Virus record (IMG/VR): IMGVR_UViG_2737471840_000002
Span: 1 to 12,082 of that record
Source of the DNA: a virus
Lineage: Duplodnaviria > Heunggongvirae > Uroviricota > Caudoviricetes
DNA length: 12,082 nt
Reading direction: 5' to 3' (one strand)
Positions 1 through 12,082 of this stretch are shown here, one piece after another (within the stretch, counting starts at the first letter, position 1; each line of letters opens with the position of its first letter). Made by a program: the position numbers and the translations under genes. The notes under the pieces were generated by a model. The model saw only the letters and a list, made by a program, of their open reading frames with translations. It did no database searches and was not told the origin of the DNA.

Positions 1-61
1 ATTGAGTGGGAATGATTAACAGCTAACTCATAGCAACTCATTCCTATTCAGATACTAATTT

Positions 62-94
62 AACCCTCTGTTTTTACAGAGGGTTTTTGTTTTT
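62..94 (+). terminator. Rho-independent terminator (10-bp stem 62-71/76-85, loop TTTT, then T-rich tract)
   Basis: Seen in sequence: aaccctctgt-tttt-acagagggtt followed by tttgttttt. Probably terminates an upstream + strand gene outside the window (possibly the integration target gene). Confidence 0.7.
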
Positions 95-140
95 ATGTAT
101 TCATTTCTATTCACTCTACACCATATTTTTCGGCGGTACA

Positions 141-180
141 GGTGACGGTATTACCTTAAAGGTATACTCTCATACCGTCA
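141..180 (+). promoter_or_regulatory. Integrase upstream control region: operator-like site TTACCTTAAAGGTAT (151-165), -10-like TATACT (163-168), nested inverted repeats TGACGGTA (144-151)/TACCGTCA (173-180) and GGTAT-N6-ATACC (161-176)
   Basis: Direct inspection; the palindromes are exact. The operator-like site matches the TTACC-N5-GGTAA motif found elsewhere in the window at 9 of 10 positions. Confidence 0.45.
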
Positions 181-207
181 TGAAAATGGTTTCTATACGG
201 GTGAATT

Positions 208-1464
208 GTGCTTACCGATACAAAATTAAAAAACCTCAAGCCGCAGGACAAACTGTACAAGGTCTCCGATCGTGACGGGCTGTATGTAGCTGTGCTTACG
301 TCAGGCACGGTCTCGTTTCGCTACGACTACCGTATCAACGGTCGCCGCGAAACGCTGGTAATCGGGCAGTATGGGCGTGACGGTATCAGCCTGGCAGAAG
401 CGCGAGAAGAACTGATTGCTGCAAAGAAGCTGCTTAAAGCAGGCCAGTCACCGGCTGCGGCTAAACGTGACGGTATCAAAAAGATTCGTGGTGCCGAGAC
501 GTTTGCGGTACATACCGACAGTTATATGAAACACGTCATCCTGGCTGACAGTACCCGCGCAATGAAACAGGCGGTGATCGACCGTGACATACTTCCGGTT
601 CTTGGCAATAAAATGATGGCTGAAATTACCACATCGATGGTTCGTGATTTGTGTGACCGGATTGTCGAACGCGGTGGCCGGGCAACAGCAGTGCAGGCCA
701 GGGAGATCATCAGCAGCGTATACCGTCATGCCAATGACCGTGGTCATGGTTTGTTTAATCCTGCGGCTGACATTAAACCTTCGTCTATCGCCATATTTAA
801 ACCACGAGAGCGAACACTGACACCAGAAGAAATTGGCCTGTTCTTCCGCACGCTGGATGCCATTGGTGCTATGGGCACTATGAAAATGGCTTTAAAGCTG
901 GTGCTTATCACTATGGTTCGTAAAGGCGAATTCACCAATGCAACGTGGGATGAAATAGATTTTAAAAAATGGACATGGACAATTCCTTCAGACCGCATGA
1001 AGGGAAGCCGGGCGCACGTTATTTACCTGCCTAAACAGGCACAGGATATATTGGTTGGGTTGCAGATGTGCGCTGGTGGAAGTGAATATCTGGTTCCTGG
1101 TCGTTACAATTTCCGGAAGCCATTATCTAATGCCGCGCTGAACTCTCTGATCGACAGAACGGTGAAAATAATAAATGAAGATGGTGAGCATATTCAGGAC
1201 TTCACCGTACACGATATGCGCCGTACAGCAAGTACGTTGTTGCATGAGGCTGGTTATCCTTCAGACTGGATTGAAAAGGCTCTGGCACATGAGCAGAAAG
1301 GTGTGCGCGCCGTATATAACAAAGCGGAATACGCCAGACAGCGCGCCTACATGTTGCAGCAGTGGGCCGATATGATTGATTCCTGGATTGACGGGGAGCA
1401 TACGGATCTGATTCCGTTCTCCCCGTCGAAGTTTGAGAAGTGGATGGAAGACAGTAATAAATAA
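208..1464 (+). CDS. int: Tyrosine-type site-specific integrase, P4-like (N-terminal DUF4102-type arm-binding domain)
   Basis: GTG start at 208. N-terminus LTDTKLKNLKP...DGLYVAV is typical of P4-family integrases; C-terminal catalytic region has HDMRRTASTLL (R, H) and LAHEQKGVRAVYNKAEY (catalytic Tyr context). 418 aa. Confidence 0.9.
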   Translation: MLTDTKLKNLKPQDKLYKVSDRDGLYVAVLTSGTVSFRYDYRINGRRETLVIGQYGRDGISLAEAREELIAAKKLLKAGQSPAAAKRDGIKKIRGAETFAVHTDSYMKHVILADSTRAMKQAVIDRDILPVLGNKMMAEITTSMVRDLCDRIVERGGRATAVQAREIISSVYRHANDRGHGLFNPAADIKPSSIAIFKPRERTLTPEEIGLFFRTLDAIGAMGTMKMALKLVLITMVRKGEFTNATWDEIDFKKWTWTIPSDRMKGSRAHVIYLPKQAQDILVGLQMCAGGSEYLVPGRYNFRKPLSNAALNSLIDRTVKIINEDGEHIQDFTVHDMRRTASTLLHEAGYPSDWIEKALAHEQKGVRAVYNKAEYARQRAYMLQQWADMIDSWIDGEHTDLIPFSPSKFEKWMEDSNK

Positions 1465-1466
1465 TT

Positions 1467-2126
1467 CTATCCTTCCTGGACTTTGGTAAGCGTCAGATTT
1501 CCGCAGAACACTGCGCCGGTGTCGATGTACATCTGGTTTGCATACACCAGTGGGTGATGTGCTGGCGTATGACCGAAGATGAACAAATCGGCACCGGTTA
1601 TCTCCGAGACAATACCGTCCTGCGCGTCGCTAACCCGTTCACGATTCCATATCACCATTTCTTCTGGTACTGGCTTATCGAATGCGTATTCGTTGTGCGG
1701 GTAGTCTGCGTGACAGATGACGACCTTCTTATTGCCGGTAACCAGTTCGATAATCATCGGGAGGTTGGTAATCTTTGGCAGAAGGTATTTGAGTTGCACA
1801 TCCTGCTCAGAATCAAGTTGGTGCCACCATCCACCGCCGTTTGACATCCAATGTCCGAAACTTCCGCCGTTGACCAGTGCATCCAGCATCATCTGCTCAT
1901 GGTTGCCACGAACAGCTCGGAACCACGGCATAGTAATCAAATCCAGGCATTCGACGTTTTCAGCGCCGCGGTCAACAAGGTCACCAACGGAAATAAGTAA
2001 ATCGCGCGCCGGGTCGAATGAAACTTTGTCGAGTTCGTTCATCAGCAGCGTGTAGCACCCATGCAGATCGCCGACGACGAAGATATTGCACCAGTCAGCG
2101 CCATTGATGCGTTGATATAGGTTCAT
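1467..2126 (-). CDS. Lambda-type Ser/Thr protein phosphatase (PPP-family metallophosphoesterase; PrpA/PrpB/NinI-like)
   Basis: Motifs GDLHG, GDLVDRG, GNHE in canonical order; strong recalled similarity to E. coli PrpA. Start assigned to internal ATG ([12 protein letters not shown]...) at 2126, forming an ATGA overlap with the upstream gene stop; the track ORF extends to 2246 but that would overlap the methylase gene. Confidence 0.88.
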
Positions 2127-2773
2127 GCTGCACGCTCCCGCCCCTGGTTGTCTATTGGTGACACCGGAGCATTGCTGAATGCATTTGTTAATCCGCCAAT
2201 ATCCAACGCGTATCCAGGGTGTAGTTGCACTGCCGGGTCTTCGCACTGATTACCCCAAACATCGAAGCCATGAGACGACTGGCGGGCGAACAGTTCAATG
2301 CGAGAAACATCGCCTAACAATTGCACAAGTTTTTCACGAACGACATCTGGTTTTCTTGAATGCTCAAGCCGCGGTGCGGTAAATGACTGAACGATCCCTG
2401 CATTAATGCGCGGAGGTAGTTTTCCCTTTACTGCAAACAGGCAATCTTCACTATTGGCGCGAGTCATGTGTCCCATACCCATAACCAGTTTATCTGGTTG
2501 TCGACTACCACATTTTATCCACGTGAAGCCCTTCATCGTCATCAGACGGAATCCCCAGGCTTCAACAACTTTTAGTGCTTCGAGTGGTTGTGTTGGCACC
2601 CACCACATGGCCAACAGACAGTTTTCATCGGCCAAATCCCACACAGGAAGGCGGCAGATATCCAGCACACTCATAACCGGATATTTAAAACCGGCACCGC
2701 GATTACCATCTGCGGCTTTGTCCCGGTATACCCAGGGTGGATCTGCATAGATTAGTGTGTATTTCTTAGTCAT
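2123..2773 (-). CDS. MT-A70 family DNA N6-adenine methyltransferase (orphan, no cognate restriction gene visible)
   Basis: N-terminal motif LIYADPPW (DPPW catalytic motif) right after start MTKKY; ATG at 2773 preceded by GGGGTGG SD-like sequence; track ORF starts 12 nt further upstream at GTG 2785. Confidence 0.8.
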
Positions 2774-3065
2774 AAACCACCCCACAACATCCTATGCCGC
2801 TATAGTCGCCACGGCGAAGGCCGTTACCGTTTGTGATACATTGGTCCCTGCGAACCGCGATCCTTGCACGCTCAACATCACCAGAAGCAACATCCATACA
2901 CTGAAGCCAAAGGTGGGCGGCAATGCGGAACTGCCCTTTTTTCTCTCTTTCAATCGCGCGTTTTTCGATCTCTATCGCCGCAGGAGTAACGGCAACAACC
3001 TTTGAAGGGCTGCGCATTGAAACCTTGTTCATGTGATATTTTTCAAGTCGGCTTAACTTTCTCAC
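2766..3065 (-). CDS. Hypothetical protein (99 aa from GTG 3065; alternative ATG starts at 3032 or 3017)
   Basis: ORF in same orientation as flanking operon genes, overlaps methylase start by 8 nt (coupling). No motif recognised. Start uncertain. Confidence 0.5.
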   Translation of the reverse strand: MRKLSRLEKYHMNKVSMRSPSKVVAVTPAAIEIEKRAIEREKKGQFRIAAHLWLQCMDVASGDVERARIAVRRDQCITNGNGLRRGDYSGIGCCGVVYD

Positions 3066-3149
3066 TTAATCCAACCCTCTCTGAAAATTAATGCCAGCAG
3101 ATAAAGCCATGCTGAAACAGAGGCCAGGAATAAGTACCATCCTGACCAT
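3066..3149 (-). CDS. Candidate 27-aa hydrophobic micro-ORF (MVRMVLIPGLCFSMALSAGINFQRGLD)
   Basis: Not in the ORF track (too short). ATG at 3149-3147 preceded by GGAG; stop abuts GTG 3065 of the next ORF; fills most of the 109-nt gap after the AlpA-like gene. Could be chance. Confidence 0.25.
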   Translation of the reverse strand: MVRMVLIPGLCFSMALSAGINFQRGLD

Positions 3150-3174
3150 TTGCTCCAGTGCCTTAGCAGCGCAC

Positions 3175-3423
3175 TCATGCAGCGTTGCTCACAGGACGAT
3201 ATACACGTTGCTGAACAGGAGGCTTTTTACCCTGGAACTCTGCCGGGCTTGCTGCCTGACGTTCATCAAGCCAACGCTCAACTTCATCACGGTTCCATGC
3301 GCAGCGTTTATCGGTGATATACCAGCGTTTAGGAAATTCCCCTGCGCGCTCCATACGGTCGATAGTGCTCCATGACAGTGGCACCACCGCCAGGAGTTCC
3401 TTCTTACCTAATGCACCTTTCAT
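3175..3423 (-). CDS. AlpA-family phage regulatory protein (excisionase-like HTH; Phage_AlpA/MerR-like fold)
   Basis: 82 aa; the segment KKELLAVVPLSWSTIDRMERAGEFPKRWYITDKRCAWNRDEVERWLDE matches the AlpA/Xis-type winged-helix pattern (conserved W after the HTH, EV..W). RBS AGAGAGG 6 nt upstream of ATG 3423. Confidence 0.75.
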   Translation of the reverse strand: MKGALGKKELLAVVPLSWSTIDRMERAGEFPKRWYITDKRCAWNRDEVERWLDERQAASPAEFQGKKPPVQQRVYRPVSNAA

Positions 3424-3444
3424 AAATACCTCTCTTGGTTGCAG

Positions 3445-3465
3445 TGCGGCGCGCGTGGCGCCGCG
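3445..3465 (-). other. GC-only stem-loop (7-bp stem gcggcgc / gcgccgc, 5-nt loop) in the recT-alpA intergenic spacer, no U-tract
   Basis: Seen in sequence between stop of 3473-4354 gene and start of 3175-3423 gene. Confidence 0.5.
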
Positions 3466-3472
3466 GTGGTGG

Positions 3473-4354
3473 TTACATAGATGTTTCGTTTAATTCTTCC
3501 CGACGAACGCTGTAAACGTCGGTGGCTTTTGCCAGCAGTTCGTCATCATCTGAAAGTTTTTGTGCAATGTATTTGTAAGCCTTATCCAGTTCGGAGACAG
3601 TGCTGTAATTCATCGCTGCGCTGGTAAAGGCCATCAGCATTTCTTCTGGATCACGGCTATCCGCTTTACGCGTTTGCTCATCAGGCTTTTTCGCTGGTTT
3701 AGCGTTGATCAGACTGTTCATTCCCGCAGCAGTGGTCGTTTGCGGAGTAATGTCTCGCTCAACGCGCGGTGCCGTTTCCTGTAATTCGTCAGGGGTGTAA
3801 ACACCGAGAAGTACATCAGGAGCGTGCAGGCGAGCCCATCGTTTCGTGCAAAGATAGGCAAGCTGCTGGCGCGGATCCTGTTCCCACAATGGAGAGTTAC
3901 GCACTCCGGCTTGCGCCATACTGATGGTAAGCTCACGGGGTTCTGCTTCTCCTTTAAGAACTGCTGACACAGTTACCGTCAGATTCGGTGATTTATCTGT
4001 TTTGCCGTTAACATTCGACCAGTCACCGCTCCAGCGATAATTCAGGCGTGTCGCTAGCAGGCTGGAAGAGGATACGACCGCGTTTACCAACTGTGCTTCG
4101 TAGCCTAACGTTCCGTTTACCACATGCGTTTTCTGCGCCACGGCGAAAGGATTCATTCCCCACTGTGCCGCCTGCATGGTCACCGCCAGACAATCGGCAG
4201 TTTTGCCTTCAAGATGTTTCGGTACAGTCGCTTTGCTTTGTGACATCAACTCCGCGAAACGCACCAGTTGATTCATGCCCTCCGGGCTGAAGATTGCCGC
4301 AGCAGTACCTACAGTTGCGCCTGGTTGTGATGTGATTGCGATATCATTGCTCAT
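3473..4354 (-). CDS. Putative phage single-strand annealing protein / recombinase (RecT/Bet-like)
   Basis: 293 aa; immediately downstream of and ATGA-coupled to a PD-(D/E)xK exonuclease, the classic exo+SSAP pairing. Family assignment is by context and loose recall, not by a confirmed motif. Confidence 0.55.
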   Translation of the reverse strand: MSNDIAITSQPGATVGTAAAIFSPEGMNQLVRFAELMSQSKATVPKHLEGKTADCLAVTMQAAQWGMNPFAVAQKTHVVNGTLGYEAQLVNAVVSSSSLLATRLNYRWSGDWSNVNGKTDKSPNLTVTVSAVLKGEAEPRELTISMAQAGVRNSPLWEQDPRQQLAYLCTKRWARLHAPDVLLGVYTPDELQETAPRVERDITPQTTTAAGMNSLINAKPAKKPDEQTRKADSRDPEEMLMAFTSAAMNYSTVSELDKAYKYIAQKLSDDDELLAKATDVYSVRREELNETSM

Positions 4355-5172
4355 ACGTACATATCCTGTTTACGTGCCCAGTCAGGGCGTTTAATAATTT
4401 CCACTCCGCCCCACTCATCGTTGATGCGGCATTCGTGATAGGTATTCAGATCCCGGCGGAACAGAGCGTGCCCGGCATCGACATCCGGCGCATCCAGCTC
4501 GAACACGCGTACCGGATACCGACCACAATCAATGCTTTCGCTCACGGCAAGAAAGAAAAAACCATGCGGCTGACCAGTAACCTTCATTGCGCCTTCGCGG
4601 TACATTGCGTCCTGCACGTGGTAGCGGAATTCCTCGATGTGGCGTGCAAAACGGTCCATATCTGCAACCTTTTTCACGTCGACGATCACGTTGTGCTCGT
4701 TCAGCCATTTGTCTGGACGAATGCGGCACAACTCACCAGTATCTTCATCGTTCCAGTACATTGATGCTTCGCAGTAACCAGGTGCTTCCAGCATCCAGCG
4801 TGCCGCCGGGTGAGCCATTGCGCTATCACGCATCAGCTCCAGTTTCCGCCACTGCTCGGCATCAAGTACCGTAATCCCCATATCCGCCACATCACGAAGA
4901 AATGCCTCTTCGTCAGCTTTACCTTGTTTCGTCCGACGATCGAATTTCGGTGAAACAATGAAGCGTTTGTCGAACTCTCCAGGCTCCAGAAGCAGACAGT
5001 GCAATGCAGTTCCCATATCCAGTGCAGACTTTTTCTCTTCGTCTTCTGGTGCTGCCTGAACCCATTTAAGAAGCGCCGGATTCTTGGCAACCATGTCTAG
5101 TTGCGACTTACTCACGCCGTCACCGGCGTGGTAGTCTTCGTTGCTGATGTCGAAATAAATTCCCGGTTTCAT
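4351..5172 (-). CDS. PD-(D/E)xK-superfamily nuclease (phage recombination exonuclease, RecE C-terminal domain/YqaJ-like)
   Basis: 273 aa; acidic/K motif region (…NVIVDVKKVADMD…), located in recombination module; ATGA overlaps on both sides. Confidence 0.6.
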   Translation of the reverse strand: MKPGIYFDISNEDYHAGDGVSKSQLDMVAKNPALLKWVQAAPEDEEKKSALDMGTALHCLLLEPGEFDKRFIVSPKFDRRTKQGKADEEAFLRDVADMGITVLDAEQWRKLELMRDSAMAHPAARWMLEAPGYCEASMYWNDEDTGELCRIRPDKWLNEHNVIVDVKKVADMDRFARHIEEFRYHVQDAMYREGAMKVTGQPHGFFFLAVSESIDCGRYPVRVFELDAPDVDAGHALFRRDLNTYHECRINDEWGGVEIIKRPDWARKQDMYV

Positions 5173-5468
5173 GCCGCGTCCCTCTGTCCATCAAGCTGAT
5201 CCGCCAGATCCCAGCGGGCGATAATTGCCATTGCCTCTCGCCGATAGGCATCCATCAGTTCTTCGAACTCAGGGCTGTCTTTAGCAGCCTCCAGTACTTC
5301 CTGACGAACGCCTTTGACTGTTACAACGTCGAAAGTTGAGGACAGTTGATGAAGTCGGATGCTCTCAATCAGTTCAACTTGTCGGTCATATAGCTGTTCT
5401 GACAGGCGGTAGTCCTTGTCGAATGCCAGCATGATTTTTTGAAGATTTTTCTGCTGATTAACGTTCAT
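5169..5468 (-). CDS. Hypothetical protein (99 aa from ATG 5468; track gives 101 aa from GTG 5474)
   Basis: RBS GAGGTG upstream of ATG 5468; stop overlaps exonuclease start (ATGA). Confidence 0.6.
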   Translation of the reverse strand: MNVNQQKNLQKIMLAFDKDYRLSEQLYDRQVELIESIRLHQLSSTFDVVTVKGVRQEVLEAAKDSPEFEELMDAYRREAMAIIARWDLADQLDGQRDAA

Positions 5469-5475
5469 ACCCACC

Positions 5476-6510
5476 TCAATATTTGATATACGCGTCCTGC
5501 ACTTTGCCGCCAGCGATAGCCAACATTGCTTTCTGCGCGAATTCTTCGGGAATGCCTTGGGCTATCAGATCTGCGATTACTCTGCGGTTAACGGTACGGC
5601 GATGCTCTTTATCTGCAGCTCGGCGCGCTTCTTCGTCGGCGATACGCTTCTGTTCGTCAAGGCGGGCTTTTTCTGCCGCCTCTTGGCGTCGGCGTTCCTC
5701 GGCAACGGCTTCTTCTTTTTCGCGTCGTGCGCGCTGCTCTGCTTCAATTCGCTGACGTTCTGCTACTTCAGCACGTGCTTTTTCTTCCGCCGCCAGGCGT
5801 GCCGCAGCCTCAATTTCAGCTTTCGCTTTTTGTTCAGCTTCGAGCCTGGCCTGTTCAGCAGCTTCCCGGCGGATATTCTCTTCTCGCTCAATGCGCGCTT
5901 TTTCCTCCGCTTCTTTGCGAAGTCGCTCCAGCTCAGCGGCTTCATGCTCGCGTTTTTGAGCTACTGCGAGTGATTCTTCCAGTTTCTGGATGGTTGAATC
6001 CTTGGCTACTCCAGCTTCTGCTGCGTACTCCTGCCAACTTTCATCAAGTGCTACTGATTTAGCCTCTTGAATTCGTTCCTGAATATCAGATGATGGCAAG
6101 TAGTTTCCGGAGAGATCGATCACGTCAGCTAGTGCTCGCAAATTTGTCAGGCGTTGTTGCAGTGCTTCAGTGCGTAATTTCTCAGCATTTTCCCACTCGG
6201 TGAGTGGGCGGCGTACTTCATCACGAAGACGATCGCATTCGGTTACGAAGCGTCGTAACTCTGCTTCAACTACTTTCGGCTGTTCTTTCAGGCGTTTCAG
6301 ATAATCACGTCCTGGTTTTTCTACCGCTGTTTTACTTCTTGAAACCTTCGCAGCCAGAGATGCAATGCGCTTTCTGCCTTTGTCTGTGCTAATGTCAGGC
6401 ACTTCATTAACACCTTCACGGATCTGCTCGAGAAACTTTTCCAGCCCTTTTTCAACGTAAATTCTTGGTGCCATGTCTGGTGTGATTTCGATGATTGACA
6501 ATTCACTCAT
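5476..6510 (-). CDS. Hypothetical phage protein with long E/A/R/K-rich coiled-coil (low-complexity) segment
   Basis: 344 aa; residues about 185-300 are an (E-A-x-x-K/R-A-R)n-like charged helix; globular N- and C-terminal parts. Function not recognised. Confidence 0.7.
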   Translation of the reverse strand: MSELSIIEITPDMAPRIYVEKGLEKFLEQIREGVNEVPDISTDKGRKRIASLAAKVSRSKTAVEKPGRDYLKRLKEQPKVVEAELRRFVTECDRLRDEVRRPLTEWENAEKLRTEALQQRLTNLRALADVIDLSGNYLPSSDIQERIQEAKSVALDESWQEYAAEAGVAKDSTIQKLEESLAVAQKREHEAAELERLRKEAEEKARIEREENIRREAAEQARLEAEQKAKAEIEAAARLAAEEKARAEVAERQRIEAEQRARREKEEAVAEERRRQEAAEKARLDEQKRIADEEARRAADKEHRRTVNRRVIADLIAQGIPEEFAQKAMLAIAGGKVQDAYIKY

Positions 6511-6518
6511 TTGCTAAC

Positions 6519-6668
6519 CTACTCCCATATCTCGTTATCGTTGGCCACATCGCGAGCTTCTTTGCTGACGAAAGCCCACTTAATGCCTTCCTGTAAGGTG
6601 CGGAACTTCCAGCTCATGAATCCGCATGCAGTAACGCAGTACCAACCGTTGATGATTTTCCACTGCAT
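6519..6668 (-). CDS. Candidate small protein, 49 aa (MQWKIINGWYCVTACGFMSWKFRTLQEGIKWAFVSKEARDVANDNEIWE), first gene after pL-like promoter
   Basis: Not in ORF track (<60 aa). ATG 6668-6666 with GAGG 9 nt upstream; stop 8 nt before start of 344-aa gene. Confidence 0.45.
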   Translation of the reverse strand: MQWKIINGWYCVTACGFMSWKFRTLQEGIKWAFVSKEARDVANDNEIWE

Positions 6669-6687
6669 AACTTGTTACCTCGGTCTG

Positions 6688-6702
6688 TTACCGTTGAGGT
6701 AA
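6688..6702. promoter_or_regulatory. Operator-like palindrome TTACC-GTTGA-GGTAA (OL-proximal, overlapping pL -10/+1)
   Basis: Exact 5+5 inverted repeat with 5-bp spacer. Confidence 0.6.
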
Positions 6703-6730
6703 TAATTATGCGTATATGGTTTGATGTCAA
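6700..6730 (-). promoter_or_regulatory. pL-like promoter: -35 TTGACA (plus coords 6725-6730), AT-rich -10 (about 6702-6708)
   Basis: Consensus -35 hexamer on minus strand, 16-17 bp spacer to AATTAT/TAATTA; flanked by two operator palindromes. Confidence 0.5.
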
Positions 6731-6749
6731 TAGATATGAGTTAAAAAAA

Positions 6750-6764
6750 TTACCAGTTAGGTAA
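6750..6764. promoter_or_regulatory. Operator-like palindrome TTACC-AGTTA-GGTAA (OL-distal)
   Basis: Exact 5+5 inverted repeat with 5-bp spacer. Confidence 0.6.
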
Positions 6765-6776
6765 TCGAATAGGCAA

Positions 6777-6800
6777 TAAAAAAGCCGCCATAAGGCGGCT
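6777..6800 (-). terminator. Rho-independent terminator for repressor gene (stem agccgcc/ggcggct, loop, then 6 U on minus strand)
   Basis: Seen in sequence 22 nt downstream of repressor stop. Confidence 0.75.
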
Positions 6801-6821
6801 TACTTACTGAAAAATATGGTT

Positions 6822-7406
6822 TTATTGTTTGTTTTTTTCGTTCTGGTTGATGACAAATTCAATGTAACTTTCGATCTTTGCTTTCTCGGTTTCGGGTAAC
6901 AATGCGTAGCGCGAGCGATCATAGTTGATGGTCGCAGGGTCGTGCGGGTGAATCAGTAATTCATAGCCGTGACGCCCGAATGCGGATGCAACATTCTCCA
7001 GGGTGGAAATGGAAACGCTGACCTCATTGTTTAACAGGCGGCTGATTGTCACCTGGGCGACGCCGGATGCGCGGTGTAGTTTTCCCTGCGTTGAAAGGTC
7101 GCGGCTTTCGCTCATCCAGCGTTCCAGGTTGTGAGCCGCCAGCTGACCAATGTCGCTTGGGCCGACAGGCTGAAAACCTTCCTGAGAAAGCGAGCGATCG
7201 ATATCAAGCCAGTTACGTGGTTTATTGGCGGCAGCTTCAATTTTTCGCGCAACCTGGTCGCCGATAACCTTCTTGCCAAGAGCCCAGCGGTTTACCAGAT
7301 TTGCCTGAGTTCCAAGTTTTTCTGCCATCCGCGTCTGAACACCATTGAATTCACGGTCGATCAAGTCGTTGAGATTTTGCCTGCGGACGTCTTGGATACT
7401 TTTCAT
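6822..7406 (-). CDS. CI-like prophage repressor with two XRE-type helix-turn-helix domains and no LexA-like S24 peptidase domain
   Basis: 194 aa. HTH-1 about residues 20-60 (QTRMAEKLGTQANLVNRWALGKKVI), HTH-2 about residues 110-150 (ASGVAQVTISRLLNNEVSVSISTLENVA). Position and orientation equivalent to lambda cI (divergent from cro-like gene, followed by terminator and pL). No S24 motif visible. Confidence 0.65.
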   Translation of the reverse strand: MKSIQDVRRQNLNDLIDREFNGVQTRMAEKLGTQANLVNRWALGKKVIGDQVARKIEAAANKPRNWLDIDRSLSQEGFQPVGPSDIGQLAAHNLERWMSESRDLSTQGKLHRASGVAQVTISRLLNNEVSVSISTLENVASAFGRHGYELLIHPHDPATINYDRSRYALLPETEKAKIESYIEFVINQNEKNKQ

Positions 7407-7429
7407 TTTCTGGAAAATCGCCTCATATA

Positions 7430-7448
7430 TGAATCAGTAGATGATTCA
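7430..7448. promoter_or_regulatory. Perfect 7-5-7 palindrome TGAATCA-gtaga-TGATTCA, 24-42 bp upstream of repressor start
   Basis: Seen in sequence; distinct from the TTACC/GGTAA motif. Confidence 0.45.
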
Positions 7449-7461
7449 ATTTAAAGCAATA

Positions 7462-7524
7462 TTACCCAACAGGTAAATGCACCCCATAGGTAACTATCCT
7501 TGATTTTTGTTACCTTATGGGTGA
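7462..7524. promoter_or_regulatory. OR-like tripartite operator: TTACC-CAACA-GGTAA (7462-7476), gcACC-CCATA-GGTAA (7479-7493), TTACC-TTATG-GGTgA (7510-7524)
   Basis: Three copies or near-copies of the same palindrome between the divergent repressor and Cro-like genes. Confidence 0.65.
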
Positions 7525-7535
7525 ATATTTATTAT
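7507..7535 (+). promoter_or_regulatory. pR-like promoter: -35 TTGTTA (7507-7512), 17-bp spacer, -10 TATTAT (7530-7535)
   Basis: Hexamer match and spacing; overlapped by operator 7510-7524. Confidence 0.45.
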
Positions 7536-7560
7536 CTGAAATAAATATCAGGCAATAGCT

Positions 7561-7791
7561 ATGAGCGATAACGAACATTTCGATTTCAAAAAGCACTGGC
7601 TTGCACTTACTCCGGATGAGCGTGAAGCCTTCGCACAGGAAGCCGGAACGACGAGTCACTATATCCAGACTCACTTAACAGGTAAGCGCAAAATGCCAGG
7701 TAAAGTATTGATGAATGGGCTTTTTAAAGCCTGTAAAACAAGACAATGGCTGCGCTCAAAAGCAGAACTGGCATACTTCTTCTACTCATGA
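7561..7791 (+). CDS. Cro-like small HTH regulator (putative)
   Basis: 76 aa, divergent from repressor across operator region; segment EREAFAQEAGTTSHYIQTHLTGKRK resembles Cro/YdaS-type HTH. Weak RBS. Confidence 0.5.
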   Translation: MSDNEHFDFKKHWLALTPDEREAFAQEAGTTSHYIQTHLTGKRKMPGKVLMNGLFKACKTRQWLRSKAELAYFFYS

Positions 7792-7813
7792 TATCCAGCT
7801 ACAACCCTCTGTA

Positions 7814-7838
7814 GACCGCCACCCGGCGGTCTTTTCAT
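7814..7838 (+). terminator. Rho-independent terminator (stem gaccgcc/ggcggtc, loop accc, then TTTT) downstream of Cro-like gene
   Basis: Seen in sequence. Confidence 0.65.
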
Positions 7839-7846
7839 ATCTATTC

Positions 7847-7861
7847 GTACCTCAAAGGTAA
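7847..7861. promoter_or_regulatory. Operator-like palindrome GTACC-TCAAA-GGTAA (9 of 10 match)
   Basis: Immediately after terminator, upstream of candidate -35 TTGATC (7879-7884). Confidence 0.45.
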
Positions 7862-7941
7862 TAAAAAACCAAATATGGTTGATCTTTTTTTTGTGTCAGC
7901 ACAAAATGACCGTAATCCCAATACTAATAGCAGGGCTTACC

Positions 7942-8142
7942 ATGGAAATCATTACACGTATTGATGCCGCAAAGCGCGGACTTAAACGCTACTACACCGG
8001 AAAAACATGTAAGCACGGACATGACAGTGAACGCTGGGTTTACAACGGACACTGTGTTGAGTGCACCATGGAATCAAACCGTCGTATCAGGGCAGAGATT
8101 AAGCAGATCATGATTAATTCCTCCCCACAACATTCAAGCTGA
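7942..8142 (+). CDS. Small Cys/His-rich putative zinc-ribbon protein (66 aa from ATG 7942; possible longer form from ATG 7906 with hydrophobic N-terminus)
   Basis: CKHGH...HCVEC arrangement; occupies the cII-like position between cro-like gene and replication genes. Start uncertain. Confidence 0.5.
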   Translation: MEIITRIDAAKRGLKRYYTGKTCKHGHDSERWVYNGHCVECTMESNRRIRAEIKQIMINSSPQHSS

Positions 8143-8157
8143 TAGCGGAGATTAATC

Positions 8158-8973
8158 ATGAGCAGACATGCAACAGATTGGGCCTGGGAGACAGATCCAG
8201 GTAGCTCGTCATTAAAGCTCATACTGCTCTCGATGGCTGACAGAGCCGATGAATATAACCTCTGCTACCCCAGCATAGAACGCCTCGTTAAAGACACTTG
8301 CCTGAACAAAAAAACCGTGCAGGCCGGGCTTATATCGCTCATGAAAATGGGGCTTATTTCAGATACCGGAGAGAGAAAGGGAGCGACGAAAAGAGTGCGG
8401 GTTTTCTCTCTTAATATAACCAAAAACGGGAACATTAAAGGCAACCGGGAAGGGGGTAATGAACCCGAAAACGGTAATGTTACCGAAAACGGGAATATAC
8501 CCAAAAACGGGATGTTGAATGATCCCAAAAACGGGATGTTGAATGATCCCAAAAACGGGATCCAGAACCAGTCATATAACCAGTCATTTAACCAAGAGAG
8601 GGAGAGCAGGACAAAAAACGGGGATTCTGTGCATCATGACCCCGGCGCAAACAACGCCGTGATGAATAACTTTGTTCCTCCTGGTGGGCCAGGGCAATTA
8701 GGCAAATTTGTCATGCATGAACAATGGCAGCCATCAGATGACTTTCTTCGGAAAAGCTCATTGCAGGGGATCTACCTGGACAGTCTGCCAACGGCACAGG
8801 AACTTGCAGAGTTCAGAATTTACTGGATGGCTGAGGGTAAGGCATACCATCAGGCACAGTGGGAGCAGAAGCTGGCAAGGCGGCTGCAGATTAGCAGACA
8901 GAAGCAATCAACATTACCTGATAACAACGTTCCGCACTGGAACAGCCCTGAAGCATGGGAGGATTTCTTGTGA
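8158..8973 (+). CDS. Replication initiator / replisome organizer (lambda O-like: N-terminal HTH DNA-binding domain, iteron-encoded linker, C-terminal DnaT-like domain)
   Basis: 271 aa; N-terminus LKLILLSMADRADEYNLCYPSIERLVKDT is HTH-like (replication-initiator type); the central NG(N/M)-rich repeats are encoded by the iterons; directly followed by and GTGA-coupled to a P-like gene. Confidence 0.75.
   Translation: MSRHATDWAWETDPGSSSLKLILLSMADRADEYNLCYPSIERLVKDTCLNKKTVQAGLISLMKMGLISDTGERKGATKRVRVFSLNITKNGNIKGNREGGNEPENGNVTENGNIPKNGMLNDPKNGMLNDPKNGIQNQSYNQSFNQERESRTKNGDSVHHDPGANNAVMNNFVPPGGPGQLGKFVMHEQWQPSDDFLRKSSLQGIYLDSLPTAQELAEFRIYWMAEGKAYHQAQWEQKLARRLQISRQKQSTLPDNNVPHWNSPEAWEDFL
8419..8624. 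repeat. Origin-like iteron array: at least 6 copies of (A/T)CC(C/G)AAAACGG(G/T)A at 8419, 8464, 8482, 8499, 8523, 8547 (spacing 18-24 bp) plus a degenerate copy near 8611
   Basis: Direct repeats counted in sequence; last three copies are exact 24-bp tandem repeats (cccaaaaacgggatgttgaatgat). Embedded in the initiator gene as in lambda ori. Confidence 0.8.
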
Positions 8974-9755
8974 ACAACGTTTTTACCGCGATACAAAACC
9001 GTGACGGAGAAGCCCTTTCTCGCATGTCAGGTTATGAGCATCAGTACACCAACAATGACAACGTGGTGAACATGTCAGCAGAGAGGCTTGTTGATGCCCT
9101 TTTCAAACAGCTGAAACAACTGTTTCCGGCGGCAGTGGTAACCAACCTGAAGACGCCAGAGCAGGAAGTTGCTGCAAAACAGCAGTGGATTGCTGCGTTT
9201 GCCGAAGGGGGGATCCGAACCCGTGAACAGGTTTCTGCTGGTATGCGCCACGCCCGCGCCAGTGAGTCTCCGTTCTGGCCGTCGCCAGGGCAATTCATCA
9301 AGTGGTGTAAAGACAGCAAGATGGTTCTTGGCGTCACCATTGACGATGTGATGGCGGAGTTTCACCGGTACAGCAAGGAAAAAAGTTTATATCCTGGTGG
9401 TCCCGAAAGATTCCCGTGGCGGCATCCGGTTATGTACTGGGTCGTATGTGATACCCGCCGTGCAATGTATCAGCGCCAGCTTAGCGAGATTGAGGTTGAG
9501 AAACACGCGCGCAGGCTGCTCGATGATTGGGCGAAAAAGGTGGCTTCCGGACAGCGGATACCCGATCCGGTGATCAGCATACAGGCAAAGTCAGAGCCCA
9601 TGAGTACACCTCCGGACACAGGGAGAGACGTTTACCATCCACCAGGGCGAAGTTTCGGGTGCATGCCTAACGCCGCCACCCTTGGGGGAATAACACCGGC
9701 GCAGTGGCTGATGGAGGAATACAGGCGGGGAAAGGCGGCAGGATTTATCAAGTAA
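8970..9755 (+). CDS. Replication protein P-like helicase loader (lambda P family)
   Basis: Recalled similarity to lambda P: GMRHARASESPFWPSPGQFIKWC vs lambda GMRVARRQNRPFLPSPGQFVAWC; GTG start at 8970 with GGGAGGA SD 6 nt upstream, overlapping O-like stop (GTGA). Track ORF begins at ATG 8955. Confidence 0.85.
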   Translation: MNNVFTAIQNRDGEALSRMSGYEHQYTNNDNVVNMSAERLVDALFKQLKQLFPAAVVTNLKTPEQEVAAKQQWIAAFAEGGIRTREQVSAGMRHARASESPFWPSPGQFIKWCKDSKMVLGVTIDDVMAEFHRYSKEKSLYPGGPERFPWRHPVMYWVVCDTRRAMYQRQLSEIEVEKHARRLLDDWAKKVASGQRIPDPVISIQAKSEPMSTPPDTGRDVYHPPGRSFGCMPNAATLGGITPAQWLMEEYRRGKAAGFIK

Positions 9756-9792
9756 TACCAGCGCGATAGCGCATTTTTTTACGCCTTAACAA

Positions 9793-9807
9793 TTACCTAT
9801 TGGGTAA
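9793..9807. promoter_or_regulatory. Operator-like palindrome TTACC-TATTG-GGTAA
   Basis: Exact match to motif, upstream of promoter-like hexamers. Confidence 0.55.
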
Positions 9808-9826
9808 TAAAATATTCTAAATTCTA

Positions 9827-9855
9827 TTGATTTCGTGTCTTATGTGGTTTTTAAT
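9827..9855 (+). promoter_or_regulatory. Promoter-like: -35 TTGATT (9827-9832), 17-bp spacer, -10 TTTAAT (9850-9855)
   Basis: Hexamers and spacing; sandwiched between two operator-like palindromes in the same way as the pL-like promoter. Confidence 0.45.
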
Positions 9856-9869
9856 TACCTCAGAGGTAA
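9855..9869. promoter_or_regulatory. Operator-like palindrome TTACC-TCAGA-GGTAA overlapping the RBS of the downstream gene
   Basis: Exact match; GAGG of the site doubles as SD for ATG 9873. Confidence 0.55.
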
Positions 9870-9872
9870 ATC

Positions 9873-10217
9873 ATGAGAAAACAGATACAGGCTCTTGGTC
9901 GACTCAAAACAGGTCAGATGAACAAAACAGAATCTGCGTATTGCCAGCACCTTGAGCTGCGTAAACGTGCAGGAGAAATCGTCTGGTATCGATTTGAGGG
10001 TATCAAGCTGCGGTTAGCTGACAACACGTTCTATACGCCCGATTTTGCTGTGATGCTCGCCACCGGCGAGATGGAACTGCACGAAGTGAAAGGTTTCTGG
10101 ACCGACGACGCCAGGGTGAAAACCAAAGTCGCCGCAGATCAGTATCCGTTCCGAATCATCGGGGTAACGGTTAAACCAAAGAAAGCAGGTGGTGGCTGGA
10201 ACATCGAAGAGTTCTGA
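9873..10217 (+). CDS. DUF1064-like phage protein (114 aa)
   Basis: Recalled family resemblance (MRKQIQALGRLK...YRFEGIKLRLADNTFYTPDF...HEVKGFWTDDARVK). Not verified by search. Confidence 0.55.
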   Translation: MRKQIQALGRLKTGQMNKTESAYCQHLELRKRAGEIVWYRFEGIKLRLADNTFYTPDFAVMLATGEMELHEVKGFWTDDARVKTKVAADQYPFRIIGVTVKPKKAGGGWNIEEF

Positions 10218-10278
10218 ATCGACGATCTTTTTAGTTATCAATGTAATCAATAAGTTATGTGGATAAGCGAGGGTAAAG

Positions 10279-10827
10279 ATGGAAAGTAATATCAAAGGGT
10301 TAGTTGCCGCCGGGCATGAGATGGCTTCGGAACTGAAAGCAGAATGTGGTGCCGTTGATATGCGCAGTGTGGCAAAGCTGATCAGCGATTTGGCAACGCA
10401 ACTGGAAGTGCAACTGGTGCGTGCTAATGCGCTGGCAGCGGAGAATGCGGGGCTGAAACATGCAATGGCTGTAACTCTTGAGCATGTGTCGGTCACGGAT
10501 GCAGGGCAGGCTGGTGTTGCTGCAATGATTATCAACGATGCCCTGCACCACAGCGAAACTCCCGCCACCGATGCTTTCCTTGCTGAAATTCGTGCGGAAG
10601 CACGCAACGAGGGGATTAACTATACCGCCAGCCGTCTTGCTGCTGCGTTCAATCACGGATTTATCAATAAGTCTTTACGTGAAGTTTTCGACGTTACACG
10701 CATGATTCTGTCAGCGAAAGAAGAGTTAGCTAATGAACCGCACCCGATTGATGGCCTGTCCAGTGAATATGCGGAGAAATCCCTAGAAGAATGGGCGGAG
10801 CAGCTTCGCAAAGGAGGCAACCAGTGA
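10279..10827 (+). CDS. Hypothetical phage protein (182 aa), possibly Ea22-like
   Basis: ATG with GAGGG RBS; stop overlaps the next gene start (GTGA). No motif recognised with confidence. Confidence 0.55.
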   Translation: MESNIKGLVAAGHEMASELKAECGAVDMRSVAKLISDLATQLEVQLVRANALAAENAGLKHAMAVTLEHVSVTDAGQAGVAAMIINDALHHSETPATDAFLAEIRAEARNEGINYTASRLAAAFNHGFINKSLREVFDVTRMILSAKEELANEPHPIDGLSSEYAEKSLEEWAEQLRKGGNQ

Positions 10828-11576
10828 GCGAAATTAATTACCAGGCACTGCGTGAGGCGGCGGAACGTGCAATTCCAGCAATGGAACGCCTGTTAATGTT
10901 GCCAGCTGATGATGATTTGTTAAGTGAACAGGAACTTAAAGATTACGGTGTGGATATTGATGCGCTCAACGCCTTCAAATTTCTGGCCGGACCAGAAACC
11001 GTGCTGGCACTACTGGATGAACGGGAAAGGAACCAGCAATACATCAAATCCCGCGATCAGGAGAACGAGGATATTGCGCTAACGGTAGGGAAGCTGAGAG
11101 TTGAGCTTGAGGAAGTAAAACAACACGCTGAAGAATTATCCGAAACCAAGGCTGTTCGTAACCAATGGCGGCCAGATATTTGCCCAATAACCGGACGTGC
11201 ATTTTTCATGTGGATTGAGCATCCAACATTGGGAAATGTGCCGACATATGGTGGCCCATTAGATAGTTACACCATTCCAACAAAGGACGGTGACGGTGAG
11301 TTTTCATGTGAGCGTTACGATCATGATTTTGGCGGTTGGGTAGAAAGCGAATGTCTTGGGTTATATCTGATTGATGATAGAGAACAATGCAGGGTCTACG
11401 AACTGGAGGAACGCGTTAAGGAACTGGATGCTCGGGAAATATCGCTCCCGGAACGTAGCAGCATGCTTCATCGAACAGATTTTCACGATGATTACCAAAC
11501 GGTAATGGCATACAAAGTTTCTGAAGTCATCGCTGCAATCCGCGCCGCAGGCATTCGCATCAAAGGAGGTGAGTAA
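10824..11576 (+). CDS. Ead/Ea22-like family protein (250 aa from GTG 10824)
   Basis: N-terminus SEINYQALREAAERA resembles the conserved start of Ea22-like proteins (recall); AAGGAGG SD 6 nt before GTG. Track ORF begins at 10791 but has no SD. Confidence 0.55.
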   Translation: MSEINYQALREAAERAIPAMERLLMLPADDDLLSEQELKDYGVDIDALNAFKFLAGPETVLALLDERERNQQYIKSRDQENEDIALTVGKLRVELEEVKQHAEELSETKAVRNQWRPDICPITGRAFFMWIEHPTLGNVPTYGGPLDSYTIPTKDGDGEFSCERYDHDFGGWVESECLGLYLIDDREQCRVYELEERVKELDAREISLPERSSMLHRTDFHDDYQTVMAYKVSEVIAAIRAAGIRIKGGE

Positions 11577-11752
11577 TGCGTGTGGCATGTATCGGCTTGT
11601 TACCGTACCCGACTCGTTTTTGGGCTTCTGCGCTAATTGCAAAGCCGTATGTCCTGATGGCTGACAACATCATCCCGGCACCAAAGCGCCGCCATACCGG
11701 TATTGCAGCGGCACGACGAGCAGCAAAGAGACGCAGGAGAGCAAAGCGATGA
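11576..11752 (+). CDS. Small basic protein, 58 aa (C-terminus AARRAAKRRRRAKR)
   Basis: Not in ORF track. ATG 11576 overlaps preceding stop (TAATG) with AGGAGGTGA SD; stop overlaps next start (ATGA). Confidence 0.4.
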   Translation: MRVACIGLLPYPTRFWASALIAKPYVLMADNIIPAPKRRHTGIAAARRAAKRRRRAKR

Positions 11753-11925
11753 AAAACCGTAAGGCAAAACGACTTTTTTTACAGCGACCTGTGCGTGTGG
11801 TGGAGCTGGTTATTAGCAACCATAAGATAGCGGTACTCCATCCATTTGGTCAGGTGGCTTTTGCCGCAAAGCGTAAGCCTACTGCGTCACAGAACAGGCG
11901 GAAGAAAGGGTACGCTGTAAGATGA
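11749..11925 (+). CDS. Small basic protein, 58 aa (MKNRKAKRLFLQRP...), paralog of next ORF
   Basis: Not in ORF track. ATGA overlaps on both ends; shares N-terminus MKNRKAK with the following ORF. Confidence 0.4.
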   Translation: MKNRKAKRLFLQRPVRVVELVISNHKIAVLHPFGQVAFAAKRKPTASQNRRKKGYAVR

Positions 11926-12082
11926 AAAACCGTAAAGCAAAGATTCTGTTAGTTCGTAGAAACGCTCCTGGCGTCTGGCAGTGGGTGAGACTCAGCAACC
12001 GACGGATGGGGTTGATGAAATATTACGGGATGATGGATTGTGGTTTTTGCAAAAAGCCCAGCGCGGCGCAAAACCGCTGGAA
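11922..12082 (+). CDS. Small basic protein, partial (at least 53 aa; MKNRKAKILLVRR...), runs off the window end
   Basis: Not in ORF track. Same N-terminal heptapeptide as the preceding ORF; no stop before the window ends. Confidence 0.4.
   Translation, partial: MKNRKAKILLVRRNAPGVWQWVRLSNRRMGLMKYYGMMDCGFCKKPSAAQNRW

Follow-up and report, generated by a model that had tools for sequence, protein, structure and literature searches.

A mosaic cassette of small, very basic genes behind an Ea22-like gene in a temperate enterobacterial phage

The 12,082-nucleotide (nt) stretch of DNA analyzed here, positions 1 to 12,082 of the IMG/VR virus record IMGVR_UViG_2737471840_000002 (Caudoviricetes; hereafter the window), ends in a 507-nt region in which very small open reading frames (ORFs) follow one another in overlapping frames, and the question raised by this locus is whether these ORFs are genes, how they are related to each other, and what their products might do. 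A first-pass annotation, made from the sequence alone, had described three chained ORFs of about 58 amino acids (aa) and taken the second and third for tandem-duplication paralogs; we confirm the observation and find the interpretation partly supported, with the novelty overstated and tandem duplication too simple an account. The best explanation of the whole, which we consider fairly probable, is that the region forms the 5' part of a cassette of accessory genes, small and very basic, whose translation is coupled and which temperate enterobacterial phages carry. The ORFs and their start signals are as follows.

11563 to 11569, plus strand: strong Shine-Dalgarno sequence AAGGAGG, read from the sequence, 6 nt upstream of the ORF1 ATG
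11576 to 11752, plus strand: ORF1, 58 aa, isoelectric point (pI) 12, phrog_13831 member, WP_001261538.1
11735 to 11739, plus strand: Shine-Dalgarno-like AGGAG within the tail of ORF1, 9 nt upstream of the ORF2 ATG
11749 to 11925, plus strand: ORF2, 58 aa, pI 12, phrog_1380 member, starting MKNRKAK
11774 to 11780, plus strand: T7 homopolymer in ORF2, with the in-frame reading T_TTT_TTA
11922 to 12082 (the window end), plus strand: ORF3, first 53 codons of a 62-aa gene, phrog_1380 member, starting MKNRKAK

The TAA stop codon of an upstream Ea22-like gene (11574 to 11576) overlaps the ORF1 ATG (11576 to 11578) as TAATG, and the ORF1/ORF2 and ORF2/ORF3 junctions are both ATGA overlaps, with each successive ORF shifted to the -1 frame relative to its predecessor. 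The chain and the 58-aa length therefore stand for ORF1 and ORF2, while ORF3 is longer, its full length of 62 aa being taken from two identical relatives (loci L001 and L002). When the 507-nt region was shuffled by mononucleotide 20,000 times, no shuffle gave a chain of at least three ORFs of at least 50 codons and 59 gave a chain of two; the three-ORF chain is far beyond chance. In front of ORF3 there is a weaker GAAAGGG, 11 nt upstream of the start. Searches within the cassette region found no promoter, terminator or Rfam family, and a structured RNA, promoter or terminator inside it was rejected as a candidate. Because the cassette is free of promoters and terminators, its genes would be read within a long early operon, and the ATGA overlaps with their Shine-Dalgarno-like sites suggest that translation is coupled by termination and reinitiation. 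The three products have a pI of 11.3 to 12.0, with 15 to 16 Lys plus Arg and only 1 to 2 acidic residues, and so are indeed the small basic proteins first described. In ORF1 a moderately hydrophobic N-terminal half is followed by an Arg/Lys-rich tail, KRRHTGIAAARRAAKRRRRAKR, which ends ...AAKRRRRAKR; both this AKRRRRAKR ending and the shared MKNRKAK start of ORF2 and ORF3 had been read correctly, as the ORF list and the sequence itself confirm.

Judged by sequence comparison, ORF1, ORF2 and ORF3 are all protein-coding, since the substitution pattern, the in-frame indels, the Shine-Dalgarno-like sequences and the retention of motifs through different codons agree. The 13 distinct DNA alleles of ORF2 have 5, 2 and 12 segregating sites at codon positions 1, 2 and 3, with 14 synonymous and 7 nonsynonymous changes, and the 18 alleles of ORF1 have 6, 9 and 17, with 19 synonymous and 17 nonsynonymous. 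Lengths among 84 ORF1 homologues are 51, 57, 58 and 60 aa, and hence differ by whole-codon indels. In every pairwise comparison the heptapeptide head MKNRKAK is free of nonsynonymous differences, with as many as three synonymous ones, and the QNR motif is kept through differing codons (CAA-AAC-CGC versus CAG-AAC-AGG). The ratio of nonsynonymous to synonymous polymorphism (pN/pS) is 0.24 to 0.40 among closely related alleles and 0.44 to 0.60 between the divergent body types described below, and there is no signal of positive or diversifying selection wherever it was measured, in data that are thin and confounded by recombination.

The succession of -1 frames could also be expected if the three ORFs were a single larger gene broken by sequencing frameshifts, and a few ORF1-ORF2 fusions are found in the databases (P0072, P0133, P0137). 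Such fusions are rare, however, and trace to the T7 run. Every one of the three ORFs comes with a start codon and a Shine-Dalgarno-like site of its own; ORF1 on the one hand and ORF2 and ORF3 on the other belong to separate PHROG families whose lengths, 58 and 62 positions, match those of the ORFs; and the separate frames and ATGA junctions recur in complete genomes as well as in phage records, obtained by many laboratories on many platforms. One broken gene is therefore so improbable that it can be set aside, and the ORFs are separate genes whose frames are conserved in relatives. The T7 run itself varies: T8 variants yield a 22-aa product (five L063-type loci, P0072 and P0137) and P0133 is a T6 variant, with ORF2 truncated or fused as a result, which could reflect sequencing errors, pseudogenization or phase-variable expression of ORF2. 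The in-frame T_TTT_TTA has the form of a classical -1 slippery heptamer. A different kind of variation affects ORF1, for which the homologues P0125, P0126 and P0130 form an alternative-tail group; the frequent variant P0130 (95 contigs) has an acidic alternative-frame tail, ...AAIPVLHRHDEQQRNAGEQNDEKP, instead of the Arg-rich tail, and this type terminates inside the head of the next gene, so that the basic tail of ORF1 may be nonessential or the P0130 lineage may be decaying.

RefSeq annotates ORF1 (WP_001261538.1) and ORF3 (WP_000797279.1), and ORF2 is unannotated in the two records inspected. That the ORFs had been missed by the ORF track reflects only a length cut-off. Each of the exact ORF1, ORF2 and ORF3 proteins is present, as 'hypothetical protein', on at least 1000 contigs in NCBI/UniProt; the ORF2 protein is also present in phage TL-2011c, and ORF3, which is the same as WP_000797279.1, as Min27 gp09 and as the VT2-Sa p08 type, is found in 146 phage records. 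In profile hidden Markov model (HMM) searches ORF1 matches phrog_13831 over its full length (E=1.1e-41, positions 1-58 of 58), and phrog_1380 is matched by both ORF2 (E=6.5e-23, 1-58 against 1-60 of 62) and ORF3 (E=1e-40, 1-62 against 1-62 of 62). These two families, and phrog_926, to which a fourth gene of the cassette belongs, are all listed in PHROGs with function unknown. The description of the array as unusual and unassignable consequently has to be withdrawn, given existing families, thousands of public contigs and a similarity between phiV10 p50 and p51 that had already been noted; the cassette families are already catalogued, functionally uncharacterized, and represent no new kind of system. 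What the present analysis adds is the position dependence of the tails and the swapping of bodies, which are in no annotation that we found, and a predicted fold that appears to be without structural match.

The phrog_1380 family is a small one, since a search that gave 60 close homologues was followed, in a profile search of 1.84 billion representatives, by only 47 proteins, all of the same family. Among GTDB species representatives it yielded only Citrobacter braakii and one 228-nt contig, and the family therefore appears to be restricted to enterobacterial phages. Neither Pfam nor NCBIfam has a curated family matching the cassette proteins, no PADLOC model matches the products of ORF1 to ORF3 or of the fourth gene (ORF4) at E up to 1, and neither phmmer nor profile searches across the PDB, queried with ORF3, with the family profile and with the next gene, give anything beyond chance matches (E≥0.45). 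A zf-C2H2_jaz (PF12171) assignment for ORF3 was rejected: the match lies below the gathering threshold (13.3 bits, with E=0.096, where 22.6 bits are required), it is obtained for 1 of 33 family members, and the two cysteines concerned, C40 and C43, are unconserved in the family and absent from ORF2. Long family members were likewise rejected as domain fusions; they are frameshift or read-through fusions (the phrog_9263 and phrog_12350 types, L144 and P0001), and P0178 carries an extension without a family match. In the chimeras P0034, P0035 and P0058, the second of which is on 17 contigs, the first 32 residues of ORF3 are joined to the hydrophobic C-terminus of a DUF4014 (PF13198) protein, as though a recombinational deletion had brought two accessory genes together. 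In the literature searched we found no paper that contains the gene names or motif strings of these ORFs.

How ORF2 and ORF3 are related is best seen by dividing each copy into parts. The two proteins are homologues, with 37% identity over 54 residues (BLASTP E=5e-10) and membership in the same family, and ORF1 was ruled out as a third paralogue (hhalign probability 0.2% against the ORF2/ORF3 family). The only similarity between ORF2 and ORF3 at the DNA level is a pair of 21-nt head repeats with 95% identity and a spacing of 173 nt, located by a repeat search on the identical locus L002.

11748 to 11768, plus strand: head repeat copy 1, GATGAAAAACCGTAAGGCAAA (L002 6349-6369)
11921 to 11941, plus strand: head repeat copy 2, GATGAAAAACCGTAAAGCAAA (L002 6522-6542)

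Each phrog_1380 copy starts with the invariant seven-codon head MKNRKAK. Next comes a highly divergent body, some 40 codons long, in which an S-N-R/H motif is retained, and then a conserved segment, KPSAAQNR, to which one or the other of two tails is attached. Residues 10 to 45 of the body are highly variable, while in an alignment of 33 sequences N3 and R4 are invariant and M1, K5, A6, L9, S25, N26, Q50, N51 and R52 are conserved at 90% or more; K54 is invariant in a 15-sequence alignment only, and cysteines are unconserved. Copies that precede another copy carry an 'internal' tail, RRKKGYAVR (...QNRRKKGYAVR), which in ORF2 is ...KPTASQNRRKKGYAVR, and the last copy of an array carries a 'terminal' tail, WKNHLRTKGE (...QNRWKNHLRTKGE), which in ORF3 is ...KPSAAQNRWKNHLRTKGE and whose final codons hold the Shine-Dalgarno sequence of the phrog_926 gene. 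In a segment-by-segment comparison, heads, bodies and tails assort independently between phages. For example, ORF3 and the 'SRVY' allele have bodies that are only 53% identical in nucleotide sequence and tails that are identical at 48 of 48 positions, the reverse is true of ORF3 and the middle copy of a three-copy array in locus L104 (body 98%, tail 52%), and ORF2 and phiV10 p50 share 35% identity in the body and 93% in the tail.

This arrangement bears directly on the proposed tandem duplication. The bodies of ORF2 and ORF3 are 44% identical in nucleotide sequence, as divergent as alleles from different phages, and the two copies have only the 21-nt head in common as DNA, whereas ORF3 and a copy from another phage are 98% identical in the body. 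Because the bodies are divergent and the parts assort independently, assembly from divergent alleles by unequal recombination is favored over a recent duplication, as is a duplication of great age; the homology of the two copies is upheld, and the two-copy array of the window would either join divergent alleles through recombination or descend from an old duplication. Unequal homologous recombination within the conserved heads and tails would allow arrays to grow, shrink and swap bodies. The same data could be taken further, to the view that heads and tails are mainly DNA-level exchange junctions and reinitiation signals, and that the peptides have next to no function or none, the ORFs being selfish or decaying hitch-hikers: bodies that are only 53% identical carry tails without differences at synonymous sites, the type of tail depends on the following gene and holds that gene's Shine-Dalgarno sequence, frameshifted and fused variants exist, and ORF2 is often left unannotated. 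Yet ORF lengths are kept over hundreds of contigs with indels in frame, ORF1 and ORF2 show third-position enrichment and a synonymous excess, and MKNRKAK, SN and QNR are retained through different codons even in distant members (35-45% identity), with a compact AlphaFold2 fold (predicted local distance difference test score, pLDDT, 82) adding to the case for the proteins. We find it very doubtful that the peptides are mere passengers of their junctions, and continue with a cassette of functional protein-coding genes.

Cassette architectures were surveyed across 153 loci, and the order in relatives is an Ea22-like gene, ORF1 (phrog_13831), one to three phrog_1380 copies and a 69-aa phrog_926 gene, which lies beyond the window end and extends the array past the three ORFs first described. 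The tandem array and its copy-number variation, for which a check in related prophages had been proposed, are both borne out. The 80 IMG/VR loci most similar to ORF3 comprise 43 with one copy, 36 with two, and one with both a one-copy and a two-copy cassette, and 68 loci were found with ORF2, including 64 with two copies and 2 with three. The three-copy arrays are in L104, which was verified ORF by ORF, and L140. On one IMG/VR contig (2537562191_000021, loci L014 and L107) the cassette occurs twice within about 1.3 kb, as ORF1-ORF2-ORF3-ORF4 and then ORF1-ORF3, which is a higher-order duplication of the module. Its hosts are Shiga toxin (Stx) phages, phiV10, P1-like phage-plasmids and other prophages. 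Of 5426 complete Escherichia coli genomes, 150 contain the DNA of ORF2, which sits at 104 sites on plasmids and 51 on chromosomes, and 1038 have matches to the wider ORF1/ORF3 region. Over 683 nt around the cassette the sequence is 100% identical in an O145:H28 prophage, where it lies between erf and int in the leftward early region, and in a set of plasmids of 90-136 kb; the plasmid inspected, pZ1323CEC0018-4, has P1-type genes (phd/doc, a homologue of the theta subunit of DNA polymerase III and an S24 peptidase). ETEC4090, a close relative, has genes for an HNH endonuclease and then for a DUF551 protein downstream of the Ea22-like gene in place of the small ORFs, and because the sequence after the Ea22-like gene differs in this way the cassette can be regarded as a swappable module.

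The fourth gene (L002 6713-6922, WP_000951706.1) encodes a protein with Cys13, Cys15, Cys18, Cys40 and His62 that could be a small metal-binding protein and that has no match in Pfam or PDB; the gene is frameshifted in the O145:H28 prophage. In the same prophage (L001, 1597-3203) an anti-RecBCD gene is split by an IS3-family insertion.

As to what the cassette does, we tentatively propose that the phrog_1380 proteins are early-expressed nucleic-acid-binding proteins that modulate host or phage gene expression, a suggestion that we would put somewhat short of an even chance. An AlphaFold2 model built from 33 sequences (pLDDT 81.8, predicted template modelling score 0.54) has a helix at residues 4-11, strands at 19-25, 28-33 and 38-43, and a second helix at 48-60; it replaced an earlier model from 15 sequences that was poor (pLDDT 67) and uninformative in Foldseek. 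According to this prediction, a domain of about 60 aa, with a helix, a three-stranded sheet and a second helix, would bind RNA or DNA through Asn-Arg patches formed by N3-R4 in helix 1, S25-N26-R27 in the turn between strands 1 and 2, and Q50-N51-R52-K54 in helix 2, aided by a net charge of about +14, and host or phage gene expression would be modulated early after infection or induction. The Arg-rich tail of ORF1 could likewise bind nucleic acid, or ORF1 could act as a partner of the phrog_1380 proteins. The proposal of nucleic-acid binding is drawn from composition (pI 11.3-12) and from the invariant Asn, Arg, Gln and Lys positions, and the first-pass suggestion of a nucleic-acid-binding or diversifying accessory function is a reasonable one given the highly variable center of the ORF2/ORF3 family.

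Several considerations weigh against this proposal and against the cassette reading as a whole. The searches of Pfam, NCBIfam and PADLOC and the sequence searches of PDB found no homology to nucleic-acid binders or to proteins of any function, the AlphaFold2 model is built on only 33 sequences, and it is an assumption that the three conserved patches come together on one face of it. Conservation of the head could be due in part to the needs of translation initiation, such as A-rich codons after the ATG, and identity of the tails at synonymous sites is a sign of recombination or recent spread and not of selection. Finally, because ORF2 is left uncalled by the Prokaryotic Genome Annotation Pipeline (PGAP) in both RefSeq records inspected and is frameshifted at the T7 run in some contigs, it may be dispensable.

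The distribution and the mosaic structure can also be accommodated if the proteins are counter-defense or host-takeover factors that bind a host protein, with the variable body as specificity surface and extra copies broadening the range of targets. The cassette is in early accessory regions of unrelated temperate phages, namely the exo-xis region in Stx phages, a nin-like region in the window and in phiV10, and P1-like phage-plasmids; body types are 35-53% identical in nucleotide sequence while the ends are conserved; copy number ranges from 1 to 3; and replacement of the cassette by an HNH endonuclease gene in ETEC4090 is typical of swappable accessory modules. Against this, pN/pS is 0.24-0.6, that is, below 1 wherever measured, the supplements of two screens of accessory genes do not contain the cassette sequences, and the extreme positive charge and invariant Asn/Arg patches better fit a conserved polyanionic target; to our knowledge, most known small anti-defense proteins are acidic. 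We consider a counter-defense role unlikely, less so than nonfunctional peptides, and retain nucleic-acid binding as the working proposal. A more far-reaching idea, which we regard as improbable, is that phrog_1380 is an unrecognized fold and family of small nucleic-acid-binding or counter-defense effectors in a recombination-driven cassette array, with heads and tails serving as crossover sites. If it were true, lambdoid, epsilon15-like and P1-like phages would swap and stack variable bodies, and the array would serve an early host-interaction protein as a diversity-generating system in miniature.

The remainder of the window places the cassette within a prophage that is integrated, in the relative ETEC4090 (L153), next to guaA and that matches the first 11.5 kb of the window. 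This prophage encodes an integrase, an MT-A70 methyltransferase, a PerC-like regulator, RecT, a PD-(D/E)XK nuclease, a repressor, a Cro-like protein, a DnaT-like protein, replication protein P, a DUF1064 protein and the Ea22-like protein, and just inside its integrase end are the MT-A70 methyltransferase, a Ser/Thr phosphatase and the PerC-family regulator. The cassette in the window is accordingly downstream of replication genes, and the site is not an exo-xis region. Immediately upstream of it is the following gene.

10791 to 11576, plus strand: ead/Ea22-like gene, from the ORF list, annotated as ead/Ea22-like family in 100%-identical relatives

In RefSeq this gene has a GTG start at about 10824 and encodes 250 aa. 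Beneath its 3' end and the start of ORF1 there is an antisense, TTG-start ORF of 93 aa (11361 to 11642, minus strand; 112 aa in L002), which is probably a shadow ORF. The sequence at the window end (12082, inside ORF3), where the contig also ends, is present up to four times per genome, in prophages and phage-plasmids, and ORF3 is cut at this position probably because the assembly broke on that repeat.

The cassette is common in E. coli genomes, including those of Shiga toxin phages and P1-like phage-plasmids, and if its products do bind RNA or DNA or disarm host defense, medically relevant prophages would have a further player in the circuits that govern early lysis-lysogeny and host takeover. 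The mosaic of heads, bodies and tails also offers a small example of phage accessory-gene diversification through recombination at conserved gene ends.

Among known proteins, the tail of ORF1 can be compared with the lambdoid N antiterminators, since here too a small early phage protein has a short stretch, AAARRAAKRRRRAKR, rich in Arg, Lys and Ala, although the likeness is one of composition only. The arginine-rich RNA-binding motif of N is N-terminal, the basic motif of ORF1 is C-terminal, and no alignment, nut-like RNA site or family match links the ORF1 tail to N. A comparator for phrog_1380 is the double-stranded RNA-binding domain (dsRBD, PF00035), which is similar in its length of about 65 aa and in the order helix-strand-strand-strand-helix that is predicted in the AlphaFold2 model. 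The dsRBDs bind RNA through regions in helix 1, in the turn between strands 1 and 2, and at the start of helix 2, and conserved basic or polar residues of phrog_1380 occupy the corresponding three places. For phrog_1380, neither a structural resemblance in three dimensions to solved dsRBDs nor a hit to the Pfam family was found.

In terms of genomic setting, the comparators are the exo-xis proteins of lambda and the Stx phages (Ea8.5, Orf55, Orf60a, Orf61, Orf63 and Orf73), small early accessory proteins that are thought to influence the lysis-lysogeny decision, and in Stx phages the cassette shares their neighborhood, immediately downstream of ea22 within the early leftward operon. The cassette proteins have neither sequence similarity nor a structural match to solved structures, those of Ea8.5 homologues included, and Ea8.5 is a zinc-finger/homeodomain hybrid, whereas the cysteines of phrog_1380 are unconserved. 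Additional genes and duplications within the Stx phages' exo-xis region have been noted (PMC8614690), and work on this region covers orf60a, orf63, orf61, orf73, ea22, ea8.5, orf55 and Phi24B gp05 (PMC8614690, PMC4195576, PMC10789677); the present ORFs are not treated in these three papers.

The closest comparators are members of the same PHROG families in sequenced phages, namely phiV10 p49-p52, p08/p07 of the Stx2 phage VT2-Sa, Min27 gp09/gp08 and TL-2011c AEW24572; the cassette proteins match the HMMs of these families over their full length (1e-23 to 1e-42). The Stx2 phage Min27 has a single phrog_1380 copy (gp09), which is preceded by an unannotated 51-aa ORF1. In phiV10, p49 to p52 have the identical four-gene layout, with lengths of 177, 183, 189 and 210 nt, and the depositors of the GenBank record had already remarked that p51 is similar to p50. 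Both phiV10 and Min27 have the gene order and the overlaps of the cassette in the window.

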